64,000 nt of DNA, taken from a virus. The notes under the pieces were generated by a model. The model was not told where the DNA came from, searched no databases, and worked only from the letters and a program-made list of their open reading frames with translations. Below are positions 31,511 to 45,106 of this stretch, piece by piece. The position numbers and the translations under genes are program-made. Each line of letters begins with the position of its first letter. Position 1 is the first letter of the stretch. The stretch lies in the IMG/VR virus record IMGVR_UViG_3300007609_000008, positions 32,001-96,000 of that record; one strand, given 5' to 3'.

Positions 31511-31585
31511 GCGCTTGTGGTGAAAGGGATATCACAGGAGCCTTCTAAGCTCTTATTCCAGGTTCGAATCCTGGCAGGCGTACCA
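31511..31585 (+). tRNA. tRNA-Arg (anticodon UCU)
   Basis: Full cloverleaf: acceptor GCGCTTG/CAGGCGT, D stem GTGA/TCAC, anticodon loop CT-TCT-AA, T loop TTCGAAT, encoded CCA. Confidence 0.95.
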
Positions 31586-31599
31586 AATTTAGGAATATT

Positions 31600-32262
31600 A
31601 TGAAAAATTTTATACACATTGAAGCTCCAACATTACCATCTCTGTCTCGTAAAAACATAGACGGCAAGAGAGTATATGTAAATGGAGATGGAGATAAATA
31701 TCCATCTGTCACTTCAGTTCTTTCTGTTCGTGGTAAGAAAGGTATATTTGAGTGGCGCCAACGAGTTGGTGCAGAAGAAGCAGATAGAGTTTCACGTAAA
31801 GCCTCTACTCGAGGCACAAGAATACATAAATTGTGTGAAACATACTTGCTTAACGAAGAACTACCTGAATTGTTGCCACTAGACTTAGATACTTGGAAAA
31901 AATTTCGACCTATTGTTGAGCGCATAGATAATATTCATTACGTTGAACCATTTCTGTATAGTAATCATTTAGGAATGGCAGGTCAGTGTGACTGTATTGC
32001 AGAGTTTGATGGTAAGTTGTCGGTCATTGACTTTAAGACTTCACGCCGTCTCAAAAAGCATGAAGGCATTTCAGGTTACTTTGCTCAATGTGCTGCATAT
32101 GCTGTTATGTATGAGGAACTAACTGGAATCGCTATAAATAGAACAGTTGTCCTTATTGCAGTAGATGGTGAAGAGCCACAAATCTTTATAGAGAAGCGTG
32201 ACAATTACACTGACTATCTTTTAGAGTCAAAAAGAATGTTTGAAAATGGCGAATACGACTAG
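31600..32262 (+). CDS. PD-(D/E)XK (Cas4-like) exonuclease
   Basis: YPSVTSVL, RGTRIH, AGQCDCI...IDFKTS, Q..AYA motifs. Confidence 0.88.
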   Translation: MKNFIHIEAPTLPSLSRKNIDGKRVYVNGDGDKYPSVTSVLSVRGKKGIFEWRQRVGAEEADRVSRKASTRGTRIHKLCETYLLNEELPELLPLDLDTWKKFRPIVERIDNIHYVEPFLYSNHLGMAGQCDCIAEFDGKLSVIDFKTSRRLKKHEGISGYFAQCAAYAVMYEELTGIAINRTVVLIAVDGEEPQIFIEKRDNYTDYLLESKRMFENGEYD

Positions 32263-32271
32263 GAGAAACAT

Positions 32272-32661
32272 ATGAGAGCATTACTTTTTATAGCAGCACT
32301 AGTACCATCAATCGCATTTGCTCAGATTGAGATAGTTTCAAAGCGACCTTACTATGTTATGGTTACTCAGCAAGAATGTGAGATACGAGAAGTCTATGTT
32401 GAGAATACTACAGGCGCATCAATCGTAGGTGGTGTCATCGGAGCAGCTATCGGCAATGAGATTGGCGGCGGTTCGGGTAGAAAGATTGCTACTGTAGTCG
32501 GTGCAATTACTGGCGCTAATGTTGGACGCACTCGTGCCCAGAACAATGGCAGAATAGAACAACGACAGATTTGCCGTGATGTGCAAGTGCAAGAGCAGCG
32601 TGGTGAATATGTCACAATGCGATACAACGGCAAGTTGTTTACACAATTATTTAATTTTTAG
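32272..32661 (+). CDS. secreted glycine-zipper 2TM protein (YcfJ-like)
   Basis: Signal peptide, then GGVIGAAIGNEIGGGSGRKIATVVGAITGANVG. Confidence 0.85.
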   Translation: MRALLFIAALVPSIAFAQIEIVSKRPYYVMVTQQECEIREVYVENTTGASIVGGVIGAAIGNEIGGGSGRKIATVVGAITGANVGRTRAQNNGRIEQRQICRDVQVQEQRGEYVTMRYNGKLFTQLFNF

Positions 32662-32950
32662 AATTCGTTGAAGCATGTAATAGGAAGTTTGGACAGGGGT
32701 GCAACTCCCCTCGCCTCCACCATAAGCACATTGGCTTATGTTCGTATCAAGACCGTAAGTGGAACAATACGATCCCAGTGTGTTTATGATGGGGGCGATT
32801 TAGATTCGACAGACAACTGAAAGCATGTGGAGAATAGGTGCGGGAGCTACCTTAAATGCAACAAACTTAATAAATGCCAACGATGAAGCATTTTCTCTAG
32901 CCGCTTAGGTTAGATGAGGTATGGGTACCGCCTTATAACCAAATGGGCCC
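32661..32950 (+). ncRNA. ssrA: circularly permuted (two-piece) tmRNA
   Basis: T-arm and CGCCTCC-A-CCA end at 32722, BEFORE the 5' strand GGGGGCG at 32791 (G3:U70 pair); tag frame 32876-32908 encodes ANDEAFSLAA*; outer boundaries approximate. Confidence 0.92.
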
Positions 32951-32969
32951 ACAACTAAGGAAGACAATC

Positions 32970-36447: not shown

Positions 36448-36474
36448 AAAAAGGGGCCTCTAGCCCCTTTTTTT
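36448..36474. terminator. bidirectional intrinsic terminator
   Basis: A-tract, GGGGC-CTCTA-GCCCC, T-tract, between convergent genes. Confidence 0.85.
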
Positions 36475-38293
36475 ATCTCGTATTTTGGCCATTCTGATAG
36501 AATCTAAACGAGCTATCGTTATTCCTCACAGAGCTAGGAGATACTAGAATAGGAGTCGATTGATTGCCTGAAGTATTGTTAGTAGTATTATTAAATATAT
36601 TCGTTACGTTATTCACTACTTGATTGAACGCTTCTGTCATATTTCCTACAGCGTCAGCAGTTGGAGTTACTTGAGGATCAATACCTTGAGCATCCAAAGT
36701 CTTGACACCAGAACCAGGAATAGTTAGCATATCTGGTTCTGTGCTTTCGTTGTATCCATTTTCTAGTGCTGGTACTATAACGGCTGAACGCATGTGTGGA
36801 TTTTGTTCTAAAAATACTTCTCTCTGTTGTGGATTCATGTTTTTAACAGCTTGTATCAAAGCAGGATTATTTTTTTGCTTTTCTTGAATTTCTGTTTTTG
36901 ATAACTGTGTTGTTGGACTAGACGCAACAACATCTGGTTCAGTATATCCTGCTCTTTCCATTTGTATTTTTTGTATTTCTTCACGATCAATTGTTCCATA
37001 TTCTTCCATGTTTCGTCTTTCTACTGAACTCAATGGGGCAGTTGTAGTAGTTTCTTTTCCGCCCGCTGTTCTTCTAGTTCTTTCTGGTCCATCAGGGAGA
37101 GAATTCTCTCCTATAGGATTTTCAATCAATATGTTTGCTGCTGCTGCGAGTAATCCACCCACAACTATAAGTGGAGCAGCAACCGCCGCCGTTGTTCCAG
37201 TTGCTCCGGCTGCTACAGCAGTTCCAACCAGTGATGCACCAGTTACCAATGCTCTGGCAGCTCTACGAAATAAACCTGGCTTTGGCTTTTTATTATTAGG
37301 TCTTCTATTATTTCCGCCATTTCTATTTGAGTTTACATTATTTAAATCCATATCCATATCAGGCATAAAACCGTTCATACCACCACTCGAATTGAAAGAC
37401 TCCATCTCCTTCAATTGCGCTAGAATCTGCTCTAGTAATTCTACCTGTTGATTGGCTAATGATTCTCTGTCAGTGCCAGATACAAAAGTCTCACCTCCTT
37501 CAGCATTTTGTTGAGATATAGTAGCTTTAGAAGTATTAGTAGCTTTAGAAGTATTAGTAGATGGGTTCTTTTCAATTTTTTCAATTACAGTATTTTCTGA
37601 TTTTGTGTTCTCTGACAAGCCTGTCATTTGTGCGACTTCTGATAACGCTGCCATTTGAGATGCTCTTAGATTTTCATCCTCTAGATCTCTTCTTTCTTTT
37701 TTTATTATACTGTTAGCGGTGGGCTTCAATCCAAACATTTTTTCCAAGGTAAACGCTTGTTTCAATGAATCTTTGACGCCAAGTCCTTCGTCTGTTTTCA
37801 TAAATTTACGAAAAACACTTCCGGTTATACTTCCTCTTCCTGCATCTTTTGCTAGAGTTTTCTGTGCCTTATCTAGACCTAAATTTTTAACAAGAGCATC
37901 GCCCTGATCTCCTGCAGAGAGTTTTATTTTTTCAATTTGTTTTACTAAATCTTTAATCGCTCTAACATTTGACTTACCTGTTTTTTCCTGAGCTTCTGCC
38001 ATTTTTTTGATGAGAAGGCTCAATTCTTTTTTTGTATCATCGTCTGAATCTTCTAATATACTTTGTACTGCTTCTGTGTTATCTCCTAAATTTTTTGCCA
38101 TAATAGAAGATGCAGATGAAATTTTGTTTTTTGCGGACAGAGAAGATTTACCAGGATTGATGGCAGTTCTAATAGTTTCAACAAGTGCCGTTTTACCATC
38201 TTTAGTAAAGCGATTATTATTCTCAGTATCTTGCACATTAGCACCAGAAAATCCTTCGTCTAATATGTTTTTGCCTGATATTTTATATGACAT
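36473..38293 (-). CDS. putative baseplate hub / tail-length protein (gp29-like)
   Basis: 606 aa, helical and low-complexity; follows gp26-gp51; assignment by synteny and size only. Confidence 0.55.
   Translation of the reverse strand: MSYKISGKNILDEGFSGANVQDTENNNRFTKDGKTALVETIRTAINPGKSSLSAKNKISSASSIMAKNLGDNTEAVQSILEDSDDDTKKELSLLIKKMAEAQEKTGKSNVRAIKDLVKQIEKIKLSAGDQGDALVKNLGLDKAQKTLAKDAGRGSITGSVFRKFMKTDEGLGVKDSLKQAFTLEKMFGLKPTANSIIKKERRDLEDENLRASQMAALSEVAQMTGLSENTKSENTVIEKIEKNPSTNTSKATNTSKATISQQNAEGGETFVSGTDRESLANQQVELLEQILAQLKEMESFNSSGGMNGFMPDMDMDLNNVNSNRNGGNNRRPNNKKPKPGLFRRAARALVTGASLVGTAVAAGATGTTAAVAAPLIVVGGLLAAAANILIENPIGENSLPDGPERTRRTAGGKETTTTAPLSSVERRNMEEYGTIDREEIQKIQMERAGYTEPDVVASSPTTQLSKTEIQEKQKNNPALIQAVKNMNPQQREVFLEQNPHMRSAVIVPALENGYNESTEPDMLTIPGSGVKTLDAQGIDPQVTPTADAVGNMTEAFNQVVNNVTNIFNNTTNNTSGNQSTPILVSPSSVRNNDSSFRFYQNGQNTR
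37520..37560. repeat. perfect 18-bp tandem repeat (two and a part copies)
   Basis: AGTAGCTTTAGAAGTATT repeated; encodes TNTSKATNTSKAT in the gp29-like protein. Confidence 0.85.
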
Positions 38294-38451
38294 TACTGTT
38301 TACTCTGTTGTTTATCTGCTTTCTTTTTTAGATGTGTTATTAGCATACCAACATAAACTTCTCTTTCCCAAGGCATCATATTTTCCAATTCAGTTAAGCT
38401 ATAATGATGCTCTTGCATTAACAAAAAATTCGTTTTGTAATAGTTTTCCAT
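38293..38451 (-). CDS. gp51: baseplate hub assembly protein gp51 (not in ORF track)
   Basis: MENYYKTNFLLMQEHHYSLTELENMMPWEREVYVGML, the typical gp51 motif; may be made as a frameshift fusion to gp26. Confidence 0.9.
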   Translation of the reverse strand: MENYYKTNFLLMQEHHYSLTELENMMPWEREVYVGMLITHLKKKADKQQSKQ

Positions 38452-38468
38452 CGAATCTTGAGAAAGAG

Positions 38469-39161
38469 TTAGGCGAAAAAATGATCATATCCGTTGATCA
38501 TTATTTTATTTCTAGTGTTACACTCTGAGCATTCATAATCTACTTCATGTATTAACGCCGGAATATTTTTAAAAAATTCTGATGCTTTGTTAATTACTTC
38601 AACTGGCAAATTGTCAATAAATTCTATCATTTCCTCTGATGTTTCATCTGCAGGGTTTATAACTTCTTCGCCTTGGTAGATATAAGAAATAGAATTTAGC
38701 AATATTTCTATATCATCTAATTCATTTTCTTTCATTTGAATTTCAGCAGAAGGATACTTCAGTACAATGCCCGTTGTCTCTGATAGTTCTATTTTTGTTT
38801 CGGTATTTTCTTGATCTCCTACTACCTCAAACTCAGATACGTCCATCTCATAATTTATTTGATTGTTGCAGTTTCCACAGCTCAATACAAAAGACTGTTC
38901 GTTGCCAATAGATTTTGTTCTTAATTGCAAGAAAGTCCATTGCAATTGATACATTGCTAATTTTCTTGCATCTATCTCGCCAAAAGAACAATTTTCTACT
39001 ACTTGGCAACAGGCAGAATACATATCTTCCATGACTTCTGATGCTGCTGCCAGTGTCAAAATTTTATTTTCTTTCACTAAGAAAGGTCTAAATTTAATTT
39101 TATCTTTTATGCCTGGTATTACTAAATCAAATGTTGGCACATCAATTACGGGTAAAGCCAT
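38469..39161 (-). CDS. gp26: baseplate hub assembly chaperone gp26
   Basis: MALPVID.PTF, IKFRPFLVKENKIL, FLQLRTKSIG, CGNC and CSEC; GGAGA RBS. Confidence 0.92.
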   Translation of the reverse strand: MALPVIDVPTFDLVIPGIKDKIKFRPFLVKENKILTLAAASEVMEDMYSACCQVVENCSFGEIDARKLAMYQLQWTFLQLRTKSIGNEQSFVLSCGNCNNQINYEMDVSEFEVVGDQENTETKIELSETTGIVLKYPSAEIQMKENELDDIEILLNSISYIYQGEEVINPADETSEEMIEFIDNLPVEVINKASEFFKNIPALIHEVDYECSECNTRNKIMINGYDHFFA

Positions 39162-39182: not shown

Positions 39183-39824
39183 TTAACTTGACTGTGAAAT
39201 TCTTCTCACAAATTCTTCTAATACTGTTAATTCTGTTGTTTCGTCTGTCACTTCTTGTTCCCGAACAACAGTTGTTCCTACTTCATCGTAAACTCTTTCC
39301 CAATACTTAGCTGAAAAGGAAACAGACATACGTAAAAACCCAGAATTACTCCATGATACTGGTGTTATATTTATTAGCTTTGGTATAGCTTCGTATATTT
39401 TCCATTTAGCTATTACGTTGTCTCTGATATTTAGAGATCTTACTTCTAGATCTGCAACAGAGTTTTCATAGAACGCAATTTCTTTTGATCTAGGGTTTAC
39501 ACTTGCTTTTATCCAATTTTCAAAAAGTTCTCTGCCCTTCCAGTCCTCGTCAATCAAAAAAGTAAAAACAATATCAGTTGACAAGAACTCAAGATTTTGT
39601 GTTCTGTATTCTGTCCATGCACCTATTTTTATGGGCAAATTAGTTGCAGAAAATCCTGGTATCTGTGCTTCTTCGCAAAATAAAGATAGTCTTCTTATAT
39701 CTCCGCCATCTGGTTTGTAATTTCGGGGAAAAGAAAAGGTTGCCTCAAATCTATCAGAACGAGGCGTATGTTGTTTTCTTATATCAGAGATAAAAGTTTT
39801 TAGATTTGATTGGGAATTAGCCAT
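39183..39824 (-). CDS. gp54: baseplate tail-tube initiator gp54 (tube-fold)
   Basis: RSDRFE...LSLFCEEAQIPG...FENW motifs; sits between gp2 and gp26. Confidence 0.7.
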   Translation of the reverse strand: MANSQSNLKTFISDIRKQHTPRSDRFEATFSFPRNYKPDGGDIRRLSLFCEEAQIPGFSATNLPIKIGAWTEYRTQNLEFLSTDIVFTFLIDEDWKGRELFENWIKASVNPRSKEIAFYENSVADLEVRSLNIRDNVIAKWKIYEAIPKLINITPVSWSNSGFLRMSVSFSAKYWERVYDEVGTTVVREQEVTDETTELTVLEEFVRRISQSS

Positions 39825-40921: not shown

Positions 40922-41449
40922 ATGGCCACTATAGTTACAAGAGCGAGTCTTCCAAGAGCCCTTACCACTGAGGAAATGGATGCTAACTTTACTAATTTGA
41001 ATGATGAACTGGCAGCAGTCGATTCTGCTGGTAAACTTGATGCAGCAGACGGCACTGCAACAGGAACATTGACCGCAGAAGATATCGTTGCAGATAATGT
41101 GACTGCTGATCTTAAAGGCTACGGCGAAGCAATGCTGACTACTAGCTCCGCTTCAGGTGCAATCAGTCTAGATTTATCTGCTGCTAATATATTTAAACTA
41201 GAATTGGCCGGAGATGTCACTGTAACATTTACAAATCCTCCTGAAGCAGGTTCTACTTCTGTAGCAACAATTATCGCAATTCAAGATGGCTCTGGTGGAC
41301 ACTCAATTACATGGACAGATGGAATTTTTGCAGGCGGCGTTGCTCCTCCTGATTCTACAGGAGCAAACGAAGTCGATATATGGACTGCTTTCACATATGA
41401 TCAAGGCACTTCATATGTGGTTTCTTTATCGATGAAGGATGTTAGCTAA
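40922..41449 (+). CDS. virion structural / tail-fibre-associated protein
   Basis: N-terminal TRA...LT.EEMDANF motif and C-terminal SLDLS...QDGSGG.SITW...DI beta domain, both recalled from phage tail proteins; late promoter. Confidence 0.7.
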   Translation: MATIVTRASLPRALTTEEMDANFTNLNDELAAVDSAGKLDAADGTATGTLTAEDIVADNVTADLKGYGEAMLTTSSASGAISLDLSAANIFKLELAGDVTVTFTNPPEAGSTSVATIIAIQDGSGGHSITWTDGIFAGGVAPPDSTGANEVDIWTAFTYDQGTSYVVSLSMKDVS

Positions 41450-43014
41450 TGCCAATTGGTAAGTTTGGATTAGAAAAAACCTGGAGAGCTAGTGGTACTG
41501 GTACTACTACTGTTAATACTTCTGGTAATTTTGATGTGCCATTCGGAAAACATGATATCACAGTAGAGGGTAAAGGTGGCTCAGGTACTGCCGCTGTTCC
41601 CTCTAACGTTGCATCTTATAATGCCCCAACACCGGGCAACGTAGCGTCTTATAATGCCCCAACACCGGGCAACGTAGCGTCTTATAATGCAGAGTCTGGT
41701 GGTAACGTTGCTACTTACAATTCAGAAGTAGCCGGCAATCCTGCAACTTACAATCCTGAGTCAGGTGGAAATGCTGCAACTTACAATGCTGACACGCCTG
41801 GTAACCCAGCAACTTACAATCCTGAAACGCCTGGTAACCCAGCAACATACAATGCTATAACTTACAATGCACCGACTTTTGAGCCTGGAAATGAGTCTGG
41901 TGGCGGCAATGTAGCGTCATTTAATTTAGCATTCTTTAGTCCAGGAAATCCGACTTATAATTCAATAAGTTACAATGCACCGACTTTTGAACCTGGCAAT
42001 GTGTCTGGTGGTGGTAATGTTTCTGGTGGTGGTGATGTTGCATTTAGTAATCCACCTACGTACAATGCTGTAACGTATAATGCACCATCGTTCGAACCTG
42101 GCAATGTGTCTGGTGGTGGTAATGTAGCGTCTTATAACTCTCCTACTAACACTCCGGGCAATGCGGCATCGTATAATGCACCATTGTTTGTTCCGGAGAT
42201 TATATATGGCCCAGGATCTGGAATACCAAACGATCCATCAGTATATGAGCCTGGTAATCCGACAAGTTATAATCCACCAACATCAACACCTGGCAACCCA
42301 GCATCATACAATCCTATAACGTATAATGCACCATCGGTAACACCTGGTAACGTATCTGGTGGTGGTAATGTTGATTCGCCTGGGACAACAAACTACACTC
42401 CGACAACTTATAATCCAATAACATATAATGCACCTAGCGTAGTGCCTGGCAACCAAGTAGGCGGAAATTTTGCTGGAAACAATTCAGGAACCTTTTCCCC
42501 AAGCAATCCAGCAACGTACAATCCTATAACTTATAATGCACCATCGATAGAGCCTGGTAACGTATCTGGTGGTGGTAATGTTGCGTCAAATAATTCTCCT
42601 ACTCCAGGTACTGTTGCAACTTATAACTCACCAATAGCTGGAAATGTGGCATCATATAACCCACCTACCGGAGGGAATGTAGCGACATATAATACAGGAG
42701 CGAGTAGTAATCCTGCGACATATAACCCAGAGATACCAGGAAATCCTGCTACATATAATGCAGAGGTAACAGGAAATCCTGCAACTTACAATGCGCCTGA
42801 TGGTGGAAACATAGCGACATACAACGCTGCTCAGCCAGCTGTACCTGGAGAACCAGCAACTGCTATGGGAGTAACTTTACCTGGATCTAATGTCGGAGGA
42901 ACAGATGCTCCGTTCACTCCTCCACAAAAAGTATCTTATTATGACTATCCAGATTCAGAAACATATCCAGTTACTGTGCCTGATGGAGGCAATGTAGTCA
43001 TAAAAAGTAATTGA
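41449..43014 (+). CDS. Pro/Tyr/Asn/Gly repeat protein, putative fibre
   Basis: Non-repetitive ends flank ~430 aa of xA(S/T)YN...GN 11-mers and TYNAP..EPGN.SGGGN modules; TAATG-coupled to the upstream gene. Confidence 0.8.
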   Translation: MPIGKFGLEKTWRASGTGTTTVNTSGNFDVPFGKHDITVEGKGGSGTAAVPSNVASYNAPTPGNVASYNAPTPGNVASYNAESGGNVATYNSEVAGNPATYNPESGGNAATYNADTPGNPATYNPETPGNPATYNAITYNAPTFEPGNESGGGNVASFNLAFFSPGNPTYNSISYNAPTFEPGNVSGGGNVSGGGDVAFSNPPTYNAVTYNAPSFEPGNVSGGGNVASYNSPTNTPGNAASYNAPLFVPEIIYGPGSGIPNDPSVYEPGNPTSYNPPTSTPGNPASYNPITYNAPSVTPGNVSGGGNVDSPGTTNYTPTTYNPITYNAPSVVPGNQVGGNFAGNNSGTFSPSNPATYNPITYNAPSIEPGNVSGGGNVASNNSPTPGTVATYNSPIAGNVASYNPPTGGNVATYNTGASSNPATYNPEIPGNPATYNAEVTGNPATYNAPDGGNIATYNAAQPAVPGEPATAMGVTLPGSNVGGTDAPFTPPQKVSYYDYPDSETYPVTVPDGGNVVIKSN

Positions 43015-43065: not shown

Positions 43066-43656
43066 ATGACTGCAATAAACAAGTATGTTGGTGAGTTACA
43101 GTGTTACGCTCACATGAATCGAGCTTTCACAGAAGAAGAAGTCGAAAAAATTCGAGAAATCGAAGAGCTTCAATCATTTCAAAAAGGCACAGTTGGTGGC
43201 AAACTAACTGGTGCTGCATTAAAAAAAGCCAGAGATTCTGACGTATTCTTTATGGACCATGACGATAATACGGATTGGTTATATCAAAGAATGTCTTATC
43301 TAATAGCACAAGCTAATAAAGACCACTTTTTATATAATGTAGATGATTTTGGTCCAATGCAGTATACTAAATATCAGATAGATGGTCATTATACATGGCA
43401 CTGGGATGTTTTCTTTGGCTGGCAGAAAAACACAAGAAAAATATCAGTTGTAGTATTTCTCAACGAACCTGAAGATTATGAAGGCGGAGAATTTGAAATA
43501 GTCACTAATGGAAATCTAGATGAAATCAAACAGTTAAAGCCTTTGAAGGGCGATGTATTGTTTTTTGCATCTTGGATGCCACATCGAGTTTTGCCTGTAA
43601 CTTCAGGCGAAAGAAATACACTTGTTACTTGGGTAACTGGTCCTAGAGAATCGTAA
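43066..43656 (+). CDS. prolyl-4-hydroxylase-like 2OG-Fe(II) oxygenase
   Basis: HYTWHWD (HxD), RKISVVVFLN, YEGGEF, GDVLFFAS..PHRV.PVTSGERNTLVTW. Confidence 0.92.
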   Translation: MTAINKYVGELQCYAHMNRAFTEEEVEKIREIEELQSFQKGTVGGKLTGAALKKARDSDVFFMDHDDNTDWLYQRMSYLIAQANKDHFLYNVDDFGPMQYTKYQIDGHYTWHWDVFFGWQKNTRKISVVVFLNEPEDYEGGEFEIVTNGNLDEIKQLKPLKGDVLFFASWMPHRVLPVTSGERNTLVTWVTGPRES

Positions 43657-44384
43657 TGTTTAATTTTTTGAAAAGAAAAGAAAAGCCAATAATTGAATTT
43701 TATTGTCATCCAAATGTTGAGGGTACTATTCCAACTCCTAGGCCAGCGAGCAAACATGTACCAGACTGGTTTAAAAGTATACCACCTACAATGCCTGGGC
43801 GTGATGCTAGAAATAGAAAAGGACTCACTGCAAAAAAATGTATGCCAATGCTGGATGCAATGACACTAGGTTATGTTATACCTCTGTGCGGCGATCTTGG
43901 ACTGAAGTCTTCTGAAGACTGTAATACAATTGAAGTTTTTAATCCTGATGAGCTTAAATTGGCAGAGTTTCATGACCTCAATCAGTTGGGGCCAAAAGCT
44001 CCAGGAATGCCAGCACCACCTGTAAAATTTATTAATCATTGGGTGATAAAAACAGCACCAGGCTGGAGCACCCTAATAATACCTCTAGTCAATAATAGTC
44101 TTGCAAATCCTCACTTTACTTGTTTAGGAGGTCTAGTAGACACTGACACCTATCCAAAAGAAATCAACTTTCCTGCTGTCTGGCACACTCCTAATTTTGA
44201 TGGTTTTCTACCTGCAGGCACTCCATTGGTTGTAGCTATACCTATAAAAAGATCTTCTGTTCCGAGAGAATGTGTGACTAGACCAATGACGGATAAAGAA
44301 TTTAAAGACATTGATATCATACATCGAAAACAATGTAATAAATTGCATGTGTATACCGATGAATTGAGAGAGAAAAGAAAATAA
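43656..44384 (+). CDS. DUF6065-like protein
   Basis: KKCMPMLDAMTLGYVIP, KFINHWVIKTAPGWS, GLVDTD and GTPLV..IP; family call from recall. Confidence 0.6.
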   Translation: MFNFLKRKEKPIIEFYCHPNVEGTIPTPRPASKHVPDWFKSIPPTMPGRDARNRKGLTAKKCMPMLDAMTLGYVIPLCGDLGLKSSEDCNTIEVFNPDELKLAEFHDLNQLGPKAPGMPAPPVKFINHWVIKTAPGWSTLIIPLVNNSLANPHFTCLGGLVDTDTYPKEINFPAVWHTPNFDGFLPAGTPLVVAIPIKRSSVPRECVTRPMTDKEFKDIDIIHRKQCNKLHVYTDELREKRK

Positions 44385-45106
44385 TGTTTTCAATATTTAA
44401 GAAAGAAAAAGATATCGAGTTTGTAGACGTAACTAGAAATGCGTATTTAGATTTTCCTGTTATGATGGCTAAAGATGTTCCTGTGCTAGGAAAAGACGAA
44501 AGAATAGAGAAGTTTGGAGTAAATAAATTTGTACATTGTCCTGGTATGGTAGATTATGCTAAACTAGGTTACGTAATACCTGCTTGGTGCGATATGCGAA
44601 TTAAAGCAAATAAAGCAGGAGTAGTGGCTACTATTGGAGACAACAGAAGAGGCACAAGAGGATTTCATTTACCTAAAAAAATGGATCAAACTATTGTCGA
44701 TGGAATAATAGAACCAGAAGACGGTGTTCCCTTGACAGTTCTTCATATAGGCGCCCCTTGGAATATTTTTGTAAATAAAAATATATCTGCATTACTGATG
44801 CCTGCAGTTTATCATTCGAAGGTTTTTGATGATTTACATGTCTGGCCAGGAGTAGTTGATTACAAAAATTTTACTACTGCTAATTTAATTTGTACTCCGA
44901 AGCGCAAGTGTGAATTTACAATTAAAGCAGGCGAGCCACTCATACATGTGATACCTTTTCTAAATACTCATTTAGAAGCTGGATATGGTCCAGGAACTGA
45001 ACAACAGGTAGATAAGAGTAGAAATACTATACTAGGAGGAGACAGTCAATATTACAGAAAGTTTCTTTCTGTAAAAAAAATATTTAGACTGGAAAAAGAA
45101 GAATGA
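44384..45106 (+). CDS. DUF6065-like protein, paralogue of the previous gene
   Basis: HCPGMVDYAKLGYVIPAW, APWNI, GVVDY and GEPLIHVIP align with the previous gene. Confidence 0.6.
   Translation: MFSIFKKEKDIEFVDVTRNAYLDFPVMMAKDVPVLGKDERIEKFGVNKFVHCPGMVDYAKLGYVIPAWCDMRIKANKAGVVATIGDNRRGTRGFHLPKKMDQTIVDGIIEPEDGVPLTVLHIGAPWNIFVNKNISALLMPAVYHSKVFDDLHVWPGVVDYKNFTTANLICTPKRKCEFTIKAGEPLIHVIPFLNTHLEAGYGPGTEQQVDKSRNTILGGDSQYYRKFLSVKKIFRLEKEE

Follow-up and report, generated by a model that had tools for sequence, protein, structure and literature searches.

A conserved slippery junction between gene 26 and gp51 of T4-like phages and its probable use in a programmed -1 frameshift

The -1 frameshift of tail assembly chaperone (TAC) genes has been described as conserved in long-tailed phages 'except T4' (review, 2016, PMC5009743). 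A 64,000-nucleotide (nt) stretch of viral DNA, positions 32,001 to 96,000 of IMG/VR record IMGVR_UViG_3300007609_000008 (hereafter the window), raises the question of whether T4-like phages really lack it. On the minus strand of the window, gene 26 is followed in the -1 frame by a short coding sequence for a 'gp51' module, and it has to be asked how that second sequence is translated. We find that a programmed -1 ribosomal frameshift, conserved among relatives, very probably makes two products from this locus, gp26 and a gp26-51 fusion.

The end of gene 26 and the frame that follows it

Gene 26 ends GAT CAT TTT TTC GCC TAA on the minus strand, and these few codons hold the heptamer T TTT TTC (U UUU UUC in the message) in X XXY YYZ phase with the gene, one codon before its zero-frame stop. 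Because a TGA at 38487-38485 closes the -1 frame just upstream, that frame can be entered only within 38484-38469; its overlap with gene 26 is only 16 nt long, and the heptamer lies inside this overlap. Past the TGA the -1 frame reads TCA TTT TTT CGC CTA ACT CTT TCT CAA GAT TCG ATG, the translation F-F-R-L-T-L-S-Q-D-S-M-E-N-Y-Y running through into the gp51 domain with no stop codon on the way. With both strands counted, the window holds 42 copies of TTTTTTC (~3e-4 per position), so an in-phase copy would fall by chance within a 16-nt overlap about once in a thousand. The sequence-only reading had given this gene 26 ending, the heptamer at 38475-38481, the -1 frame sequence and the upstream TGA, and all four were confirmed by direct reading of the window.

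The same reading held that the -1 frame has no start codon before ATG 38451 and that this ATG has no clear ribosome-binding site. Both statements are correct: there is no ATG, GTG or TTG in the window's -1 frame between the TGA and ATG 38451, and no GGAG-like motif was found within 20 nt upstream of that ATG. The absent ribosome-binding site agrees with a frameshift and is not decisive, as a Shine-Dalgarno-like motif of at least 4 nt accompanies only about 20 of the 56 long open reading frames (ORFs) listed in the window.

Gene 26 itself is readily assigned. Its product matches PF12322 (T4_baseplate) with 155.6 bits (E 2e-45; residues 13-234 against profile positions 2-219 of 219), far above the curated cut-off of 24.5 bits, and matches phrog_150 over profile positions 3-232 (E 5e-47). 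The likely start is the ATG at 39161, which has a GGAG at 7-nt spacing and gives a protein of 230 amino acids (aa); a mechanical ORF call opens the gene upstream of this likelier start, at TTG 39173. The -1 frame product matches phrog_634, 'baseplate hub assembly catalyst' (E 5.8e-23); the gp51 piece of the window matches phrog_150 positions 242-278, beyond the part matched by gp26. Only one PF12322 gene was found in the whole record (125 kb, estimated 76% complete). Translated across the slip, gp26-51 comes to 289 aa, fused after F229 of gp26 (...YDHFF-RLTLSQDS-MENYY...). The predicted junction peptide of the fusion is ...YDHFFRLTLSQDSMENYYK and would span the joint from ...HFF into RLTLSQDSMENYYK.

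These features suggest the following course of events. Most ribosomes would stop at the UAA of CAU UUU UUC GCC UAA with the 230-aa gp26 complete. A minority would slip back by one base with the P- and A-site tRNAs on UUU UUC, both tRNA-Phe re-pairing with UUU UUU, and the zero-frame stop close by could contribute to the slippage. In the -1 frame the shifted ribosomes would translate RLTLSQDS and then the 52-residue 'gp51' module, ending with the 289-aa gp26-51. The two products would then have a common gp26 body and differ by their C-terminal tail, and both would presumably help the hub and tape-measure complex to assemble, as chaperones, the long form being the rare one and supplying the small 'catalytic' gp51 activity with its tail as a second binding module. 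In E. coli, heptamers of the form H_HH.U_UU.Y rank with the most efficient, and insertion sequence (IS) elements employ U_UU.U_UU.C (PMC4066793).

The junction in other phages and in T4

The sequence-only reading had suggested an alignment of gp26-gp51 junctions as a check. We assembled 94 distinct junctions from other phages: those of the annotated cyanophages S-PM2, P-HM1 and ACG-2014e, those on 84 IMG/VR contigs found by gp26 or by alignment of the gp51 part, and those of distant cultured T4-like phages (Vibrio ValKK3 and D490, Caulobacter Cr30, Pelagibacter HTVC008M, Sinorhizobium phiM12, Acidovorax ACP17, Aeromonas phiWae14, Methylophilales Melnitz and Synechococcus Sf-FS3). Identity of gp26 to that of the window goes down to ~26% in an alignment of 71 sequences. 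The gp51 part is in -1 phase at every one of the 94 junctions, and every one has an in-phase T TTT TTN (T TTT TTC in 79, T TTT TTT in 10, T TTT TTA in 5); in 89 the zero-frame stop falls one codon past the heptamer. A non-coding spacer would allow the phase to drift. The linker is also kept as protein from the slip site on (FFR[LI]x[LM]...). The motif LSxDS, which the earlier reading gave as preceding ENYY in gp51 homologues, holds in close relatives only; across the wider set the linker is R-[LI]-x-[LM]-[SF]-[HQ]-[DNE].

Conservation at the site extends to synonymous positions. The codon before the T run is AGT, AAT, CAT, GAT, TCT or GCT (encoding S, N, H, D or A), with T as its third base in 94 of 94 junctions, against a frequency of 0.73 at comparable sites in gene bodies; over 80 two-fold sites this gives a naive p of ~1e-11, in which relatedness is ignored. 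The first Phe codon of the run is TTT in all junctions, compared with 69% in gene bodies. These figures support selection on the slip site at the nucleotide level, beyond what the encoded residues alone would seem to demand.

The start codon of a stand-alone gp51 is much less constant. At 44 of the 94 junctions there is no ATG, GTG or TTG before the conserved gp51 domain, and at 62 there is no ATG. The codon at the position of the window's ATG 38451 is CTT, TTA or ATT in close relatives, including CTT in contigs whose gp26 is 62-63% identical to that of the window, and in Synechococcus phage ACG-2014e (KJ019054.1) the gp51 homologue (2500-2693 of the excerpt) has no start codon and is unannotated. 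Since close relatives and nearly half of the junctions have no such start, initiation at the window's ATG is not general. Thus none of the observations that the sequence-only reading had named as damaging to its proposal was made: the phase does not vary, the heptamer is not lost, and initiation solely at ATG 38451 is not what the relatives indicate.

T4 itself can be compared. T4 gp51 (249 aa) has a C-terminal tail after a full PF12322 domain (residues 1-201, E 3.9e-52), and covers phrog_150 positions 13-280; T4 gp26 (208 aa) is also a full PF12322 match. The window's -1 product aligns to T4 gp51 residues 200-249 (BLASTP E 3e-6), the residues before ATG 38451 included, with FKLLVNPDE... of T4 gp51 opposite FRLTLSQDS... 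of the window. The architecture of T4 gp51 is that predicted for the fusion, and T4 gp26 would be the short form. The T4 genes are divergently transcribed and have no slippery site: gene 26 of T4 ends ...GLKEFFELL (2803-2850 of the excerpt), with FF written GAG TTC TTT and no slippery run, and T4 gp51 has GTG TTT AAG at the equivalent place. T4 and the window are thus alike in having a PF12322 short form and a long form with homologous tails, and differ in that T4 uses two diverged genes where the phage of the window would make both from a single gene by a frameshift. Leiman et al. 2010 (PMC3004832) list T4 gp26 and gp51 among the hub assembly chaperones and describe gp51 as necessary for assembly and not present in the particle.

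Three other explanations of the junction have to be weighed, the first of which is transcriptional slippage: RNA polymerase could add one U on the T6 run, and the edited message would give the same gp26-51 fusion. The site is indeed a homopolymer run, lengthened to 7-9 T in 10 of the 94 relatives, and slippage is known to occur at A or T runs (PMC5009743). At the other 84 junctions, however, the run is exactly six T with a non-T base on both sides. For slippage to be efficient, a bacterial RNA polymerase usually requires ~8-9. The run is, moreover, always in X XXY YYZ phase, though common coding constraints could fix the phase too, and its seventh position is only C, T or A, never G. We consider transcriptional slippage improbable as the source of the fusion.

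Alternatively, there may be no recoding at all, the 52-aa gp51 being an independent protein whose translation re-initiates at ATG 38451 after termination and the T run reflecting only a conserved Phe-Phe. This ATG lies 17 nt past the gene 26 stop, a small gp51 of its own is annotated in many database records, and about a third of the listed ORFs of the window are likewise without an obvious Shine-Dalgarno motif. Against this stand the replacement of the ATG in close relatives and the want of any usual start at so many junctions, the protein-level conservation of the residues before the ATG and their alignment to T4 gp51, the invariant -1 phase, and the third base of the preceding codon, which is T whichever residue is encoded. 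A Phe-Phe motif alone, moreover, needs no T run, because T4 gp26 keeps FF as TTC TTT. We give wholly independent translation of gp51 only a very slim chance.

The weakest alternative, a T4 gp51-like single ORF broken or misassembled by a one-base indel in a homopolymer, draws on the proneness of such runs to sequencing and replication indels and on the continuous ORF of T4 gp51, and is scarcely credible for an arrangement in two frames found at 94 independent junctions, finished genomes of cultured phages included, with the zero-frame stop at the same place in 89 and with no in-frame gp26 body and tail among the junctions compared, apart from T-even gp51.

Some points weigh against a programmed frameshift in the window. 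That ribosomes slip here, how often they would do so and what the products would bind is inferred. The efficiency figures for such heptamers are from E. coli, and may differ in the host of this phage. The short distance from the gene 26 stop to ATG 38451 means that re-initiation may yield some stand-alone 52-aa gp51 in this phage. Folding of the 45 nt after the site, compared with shuffles at 90 junctions, found no convincing stimulatory RNA structure in the window and its nearest relatives (z ~ -0.2). In the relatives a hairpin is frequent and not universal (mean z -1.15; hairpins 5-10 nt downstream are common): it is clear (z < -1.5) in about a third of the 90 junctions and strong in S-PM2, P-HM1 and Cr30. 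We therefore do not claim a conserved downstream RNA stimulator.

Two further features of the site were seen in the relatives. In 13 of them a second in-phase heptamer, A AAT TTT, overlaps T TTT TTC (GAA AAT TTT TTC) to form a tandem slip site, its position being ~12-19 nt before the gene 26 stop. A GGN (Gly) codon is kept 10-12 nt upstream of the heptamer (38491-38493 in the window) and often makes AGGA, GGGA or GGAG with its neighbours. It could be kept for the glycine alone, or could act as a Shine-Dalgarno-like upstream stimulator, such as is known from the dnaX frameshift.

Taken together, the anatomy of the site, its retention at all junctions, the lack of a conserved start and the homology of the extension to T4 gp51 support the programmed -1 frameshift between gp26 and gp51 that the sequence-only reading had proposed.

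Relation to lambda G/GT and the tail assembly chaperones

In lambda, the tape measure is the partner of gpG and of the G portion of gpGT, and the tube protein that of the T portion; gpG and gpGT, made in a ratio of ~30:1, are absent from the virion (PMC5009743, which also reviews the G/GT frameshift work of Levin 1993 and of Xu, Hendrix and Duda 2004). The gene 26 locus has the marks of such a cassette. An in-phase X XXY YYZ heptamer lies near the stop of the upstream ORF, within the -1 overlap, and among the junctions slip site and -1 phase are kept (94/94) with a downstream ORF that has no conserved start (none in 44/94). As in lambda, the heptamer comes a few codons before the chaperone stop, the -1 ORF is short and without a conserved start of its own, and the two products would have a common N-terminal body. 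The gene order resembles lambda V-G-T-H, with a tube-like gene, a chaperone gene, a -1 shift near its end, a short extension and a long gene, and the predicted N-terminal domain of gp26 has its closest fold matches, with middling scores, among solved TACs.

There are also differences from gpG/gpGT. Gene 26 belongs to PF12322, is ~230 aa long and has a CxxC...CxxC zinc-ribbon-like part after the TAC-like domain, and its slip site is U UUU UUC. The lambda slip site is G GGA AAG. The same heptamer occurs in IS3/IS1-family transposase genes, where a -1 shift at U_UU.U_UU.C sets the proportion in which a fusion protein is made (Sharma et al. 2014, PMC4066793); those genes are unrelated, and a pseudoknot or hairpin usually lies downstream of the IS sites, neither of which is evident in the window.

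The fold matches come from an AlphaFold2 model of gp26 built from 71 sequences (predicted local distance difference test, pLDDT, 91.8; predicted template modelling score, pTM, 0.85). In the model, residues 1-92 form an N-terminal domain of two strands and three helices, and a mixed domain with the CxxC...CxxC motif comes after it. We compared the whole model and the N-domain alone with 48,161 PDB representatives. The top three fold matches are TACs, each with 80-85 residues aligned to the gp26 N-domain: Rbstp2171 (3fgx; Z 7.4 for the whole model, 7.2 for the N-domain alone), the HK97 TAC gp13 (2ob9; 7.0 and 7.4, the latter over 84 residues) and YqbN (3klu; 6.7 and 6.2). PLE ORF19 (5ir0) scores 4.8 and 4.3, and the next unrelated match 5.5 and 4.4. 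All four proteins are treated as tail assembly chaperones (PMC9603447, PMC12987554). HK97 gp13 (2OB9), YqbN (3KLU), Rbstp2171 (3FGX) and PLE ORF19 (5IR0) are like gp26 in having two short strands and then three helices, with alignments of 83-85 residues, and unlike it in sequence (identity ~10%) and extent (~140 extra gp26 residues), with an rmsd (root-mean-square deviation) of 4-5 Å and Z of 4.3-7.4.

Several results tell against descent from a common chaperone. The TAC matches, with Z of 6-7.4 (below 8) and rmsd above 4 Å, lie in a range common for best chance hits. Foldseek against the PDB gave no significant match for the whole gp26 model or the N-domain (E > 1), and no Pfam TAC family was matched by gp26 or by the 71 N-terminal domains at E up to 10, PF12322 being the only family found. 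A profile search of PDB sequences for a link to TACs returned nothing relevant. At the sequence level gp26 is not assigned to a known TAC family, and homology of the gp26 body to TACs is a supported lead from the predicted model.

The different parts of the comparison deserve different degrees of belief. That gp26/gp26-51 is a recoding cassette of the G/GT type, within the only phage group believed to be without one, we hold with high confidence from the junctions compared. We think it fairly likely that the pair would act as the functional counterpart of G/GT, and regard homology with G/GT as an evenly balanced matter. The sequence-only reading had called gp26/gp26-51 the T4-like counterpart of G/GT: gene order and closest folds, which are those of TACs, speak for it, and the tape-measure identity of the long gene that follows, considered below, does not yet bear it out.

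Neighbouring genes, annotation and meaning

The genes around the junction run, on the minus strand, from a gp2-like gene through a tube-like gene, gene 26 and the gp51 part to a gene for a 606-aa protein (Table 1). The 213-aa tube-like protein has a weak PF06841 match and, by tblastn, matches to annotated tail tube proteins.

Table 1. Features at and around the gene 26 junction, in window coordinates
Feature	Position	Strand	Basis or remark
gp2-like DNA end protector	40392-39817	-	
Tail-tube-like protein, 213 aa, gp19 family paralogue	39183..39824	-	phrog_45 tail tube, E 3.5e-25
Gene 26, gp26-type hub/tail assembly chaperone, 230 aa	38469..39161	-	PF12322, phrog_150, start context
-1 frame TGA just 5' of the heptamer	38487-38485	-	closes the -1 frame upstream
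Slippery heptamer T TTT TTC (U UUU UUC)	38481-38475	-	X XXY YYZ phase with gene 26, direct read
Gene 26 zero-frame stop TAA	38471-38469	-	one codon 3' of the heptamer
Predicted -1 extension, 60 codons and stop: RLTLSQDS, then 52-aa 'gp51' module	38293..38475	-	translation
Stand-alone 'gp51' ORF, 52 aa from ATG 38451	38293..38451	-	form that gene callers would annotate; no Shine-Dalgarno-like motif
606-aa protein, tape-measure candidate	36473..38293	-	position, size and hydrophobic Gly/Ala-rich centre only

The 606-aa gene, whose ATG overlaps the gp51 stop (TAATG), is the point at which the parallel with lambda is least secure. The sequence-only reading placed the frameshift upstream of a tape-measure-like gene. 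Position and size fit this description, and no homology was found to back it: the protein has no match in Pfam, in PHROGs or by tblastn among 50,697 phage records, and no BLASTP similarity to T4 gp29. An Atlas lead to the PF25671 T4_Tape_measure cluster (0.87) is below the trusted level. In Cr30, HTVC008M and phiM12 an annotated tape-measure gene comes downstream after one small ORF. The gene is a candidate tape measure only, and this too counts against the fuller parallel.

Elsewhere in the window, on the plus strand, we noted a permuted (two-piece) transfer-messenger RNA (tmRNA) at 32626-32958, called tmRNA* by ARAGORN with the tag peptide ANDEAFSLAA. It matches Rfam RF04321 tmRNA_permuted with 108 bits (gathering threshold 47) and RF01850 beta_tmRNA with 84.3 bits (gathering threshold 84), the second of these, of beta type, being a possible clue to the host group. 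A tRNA-Arg (anticodon TCT) lies ~1 kb upstream of it (31511-31585, +). Directly 3' of a small tail-fibre-like ORF (40922-41449), a 521-aa protein without a PHROG match (41449-43014, +) consists nearly entirely of ~11-residue repeats of the type GNxAxYNxxxP, with a tandem DNA period of 33. A gene for a 2-oxoglutarate (2OG)-Fe(II) oxygenase-like protein (43066-43656) precedes two adjacent paralogous phrog_7084 genes (43656-45106, +), whose function is unknown.

Full-text searches, which did not cover subscription papers, found no published or database report of a gp26/gp51 frameshift. There were 576 records with a match, and none of the 16 annotated ones that we inspected has a joined coding sequence for gp26-gp51; gp51 is there called from a chance start codon (ATG or TTG), named 'hypothetical protein', or left out.

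In a tree of PF12322 domains, the N-domains of T-even gp51 form a long-branched pair and T-even gp26 falls among the genes of the frameshift type, and as the tree is unrooted and poorly supported it leaves open the order of the T-even duplication and the loss of the frameshift. We lean slightly towards an inclusive account, in which gp26 and gp26-51 would be true, homologous G/GT chaperones of the whole T4 superfamily, the frameshift would be ancestral, and the T-evens would have replaced it by duplication into gene 26 and a fused gene 51.

Few recoding events in viruses are as conserved as the -1 frameshift of tail chaperone genes, to which T4 has been the stated exception (PMC5009743). Our data indicate that most T4-like phages have a tail-chaperone frameshift, in the gp26/gp51 pair, and that T4 itself encodes the same short and long pair as two genes. 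On this basis, the annotation of gp51 in the 16 records inspected would be corrected.

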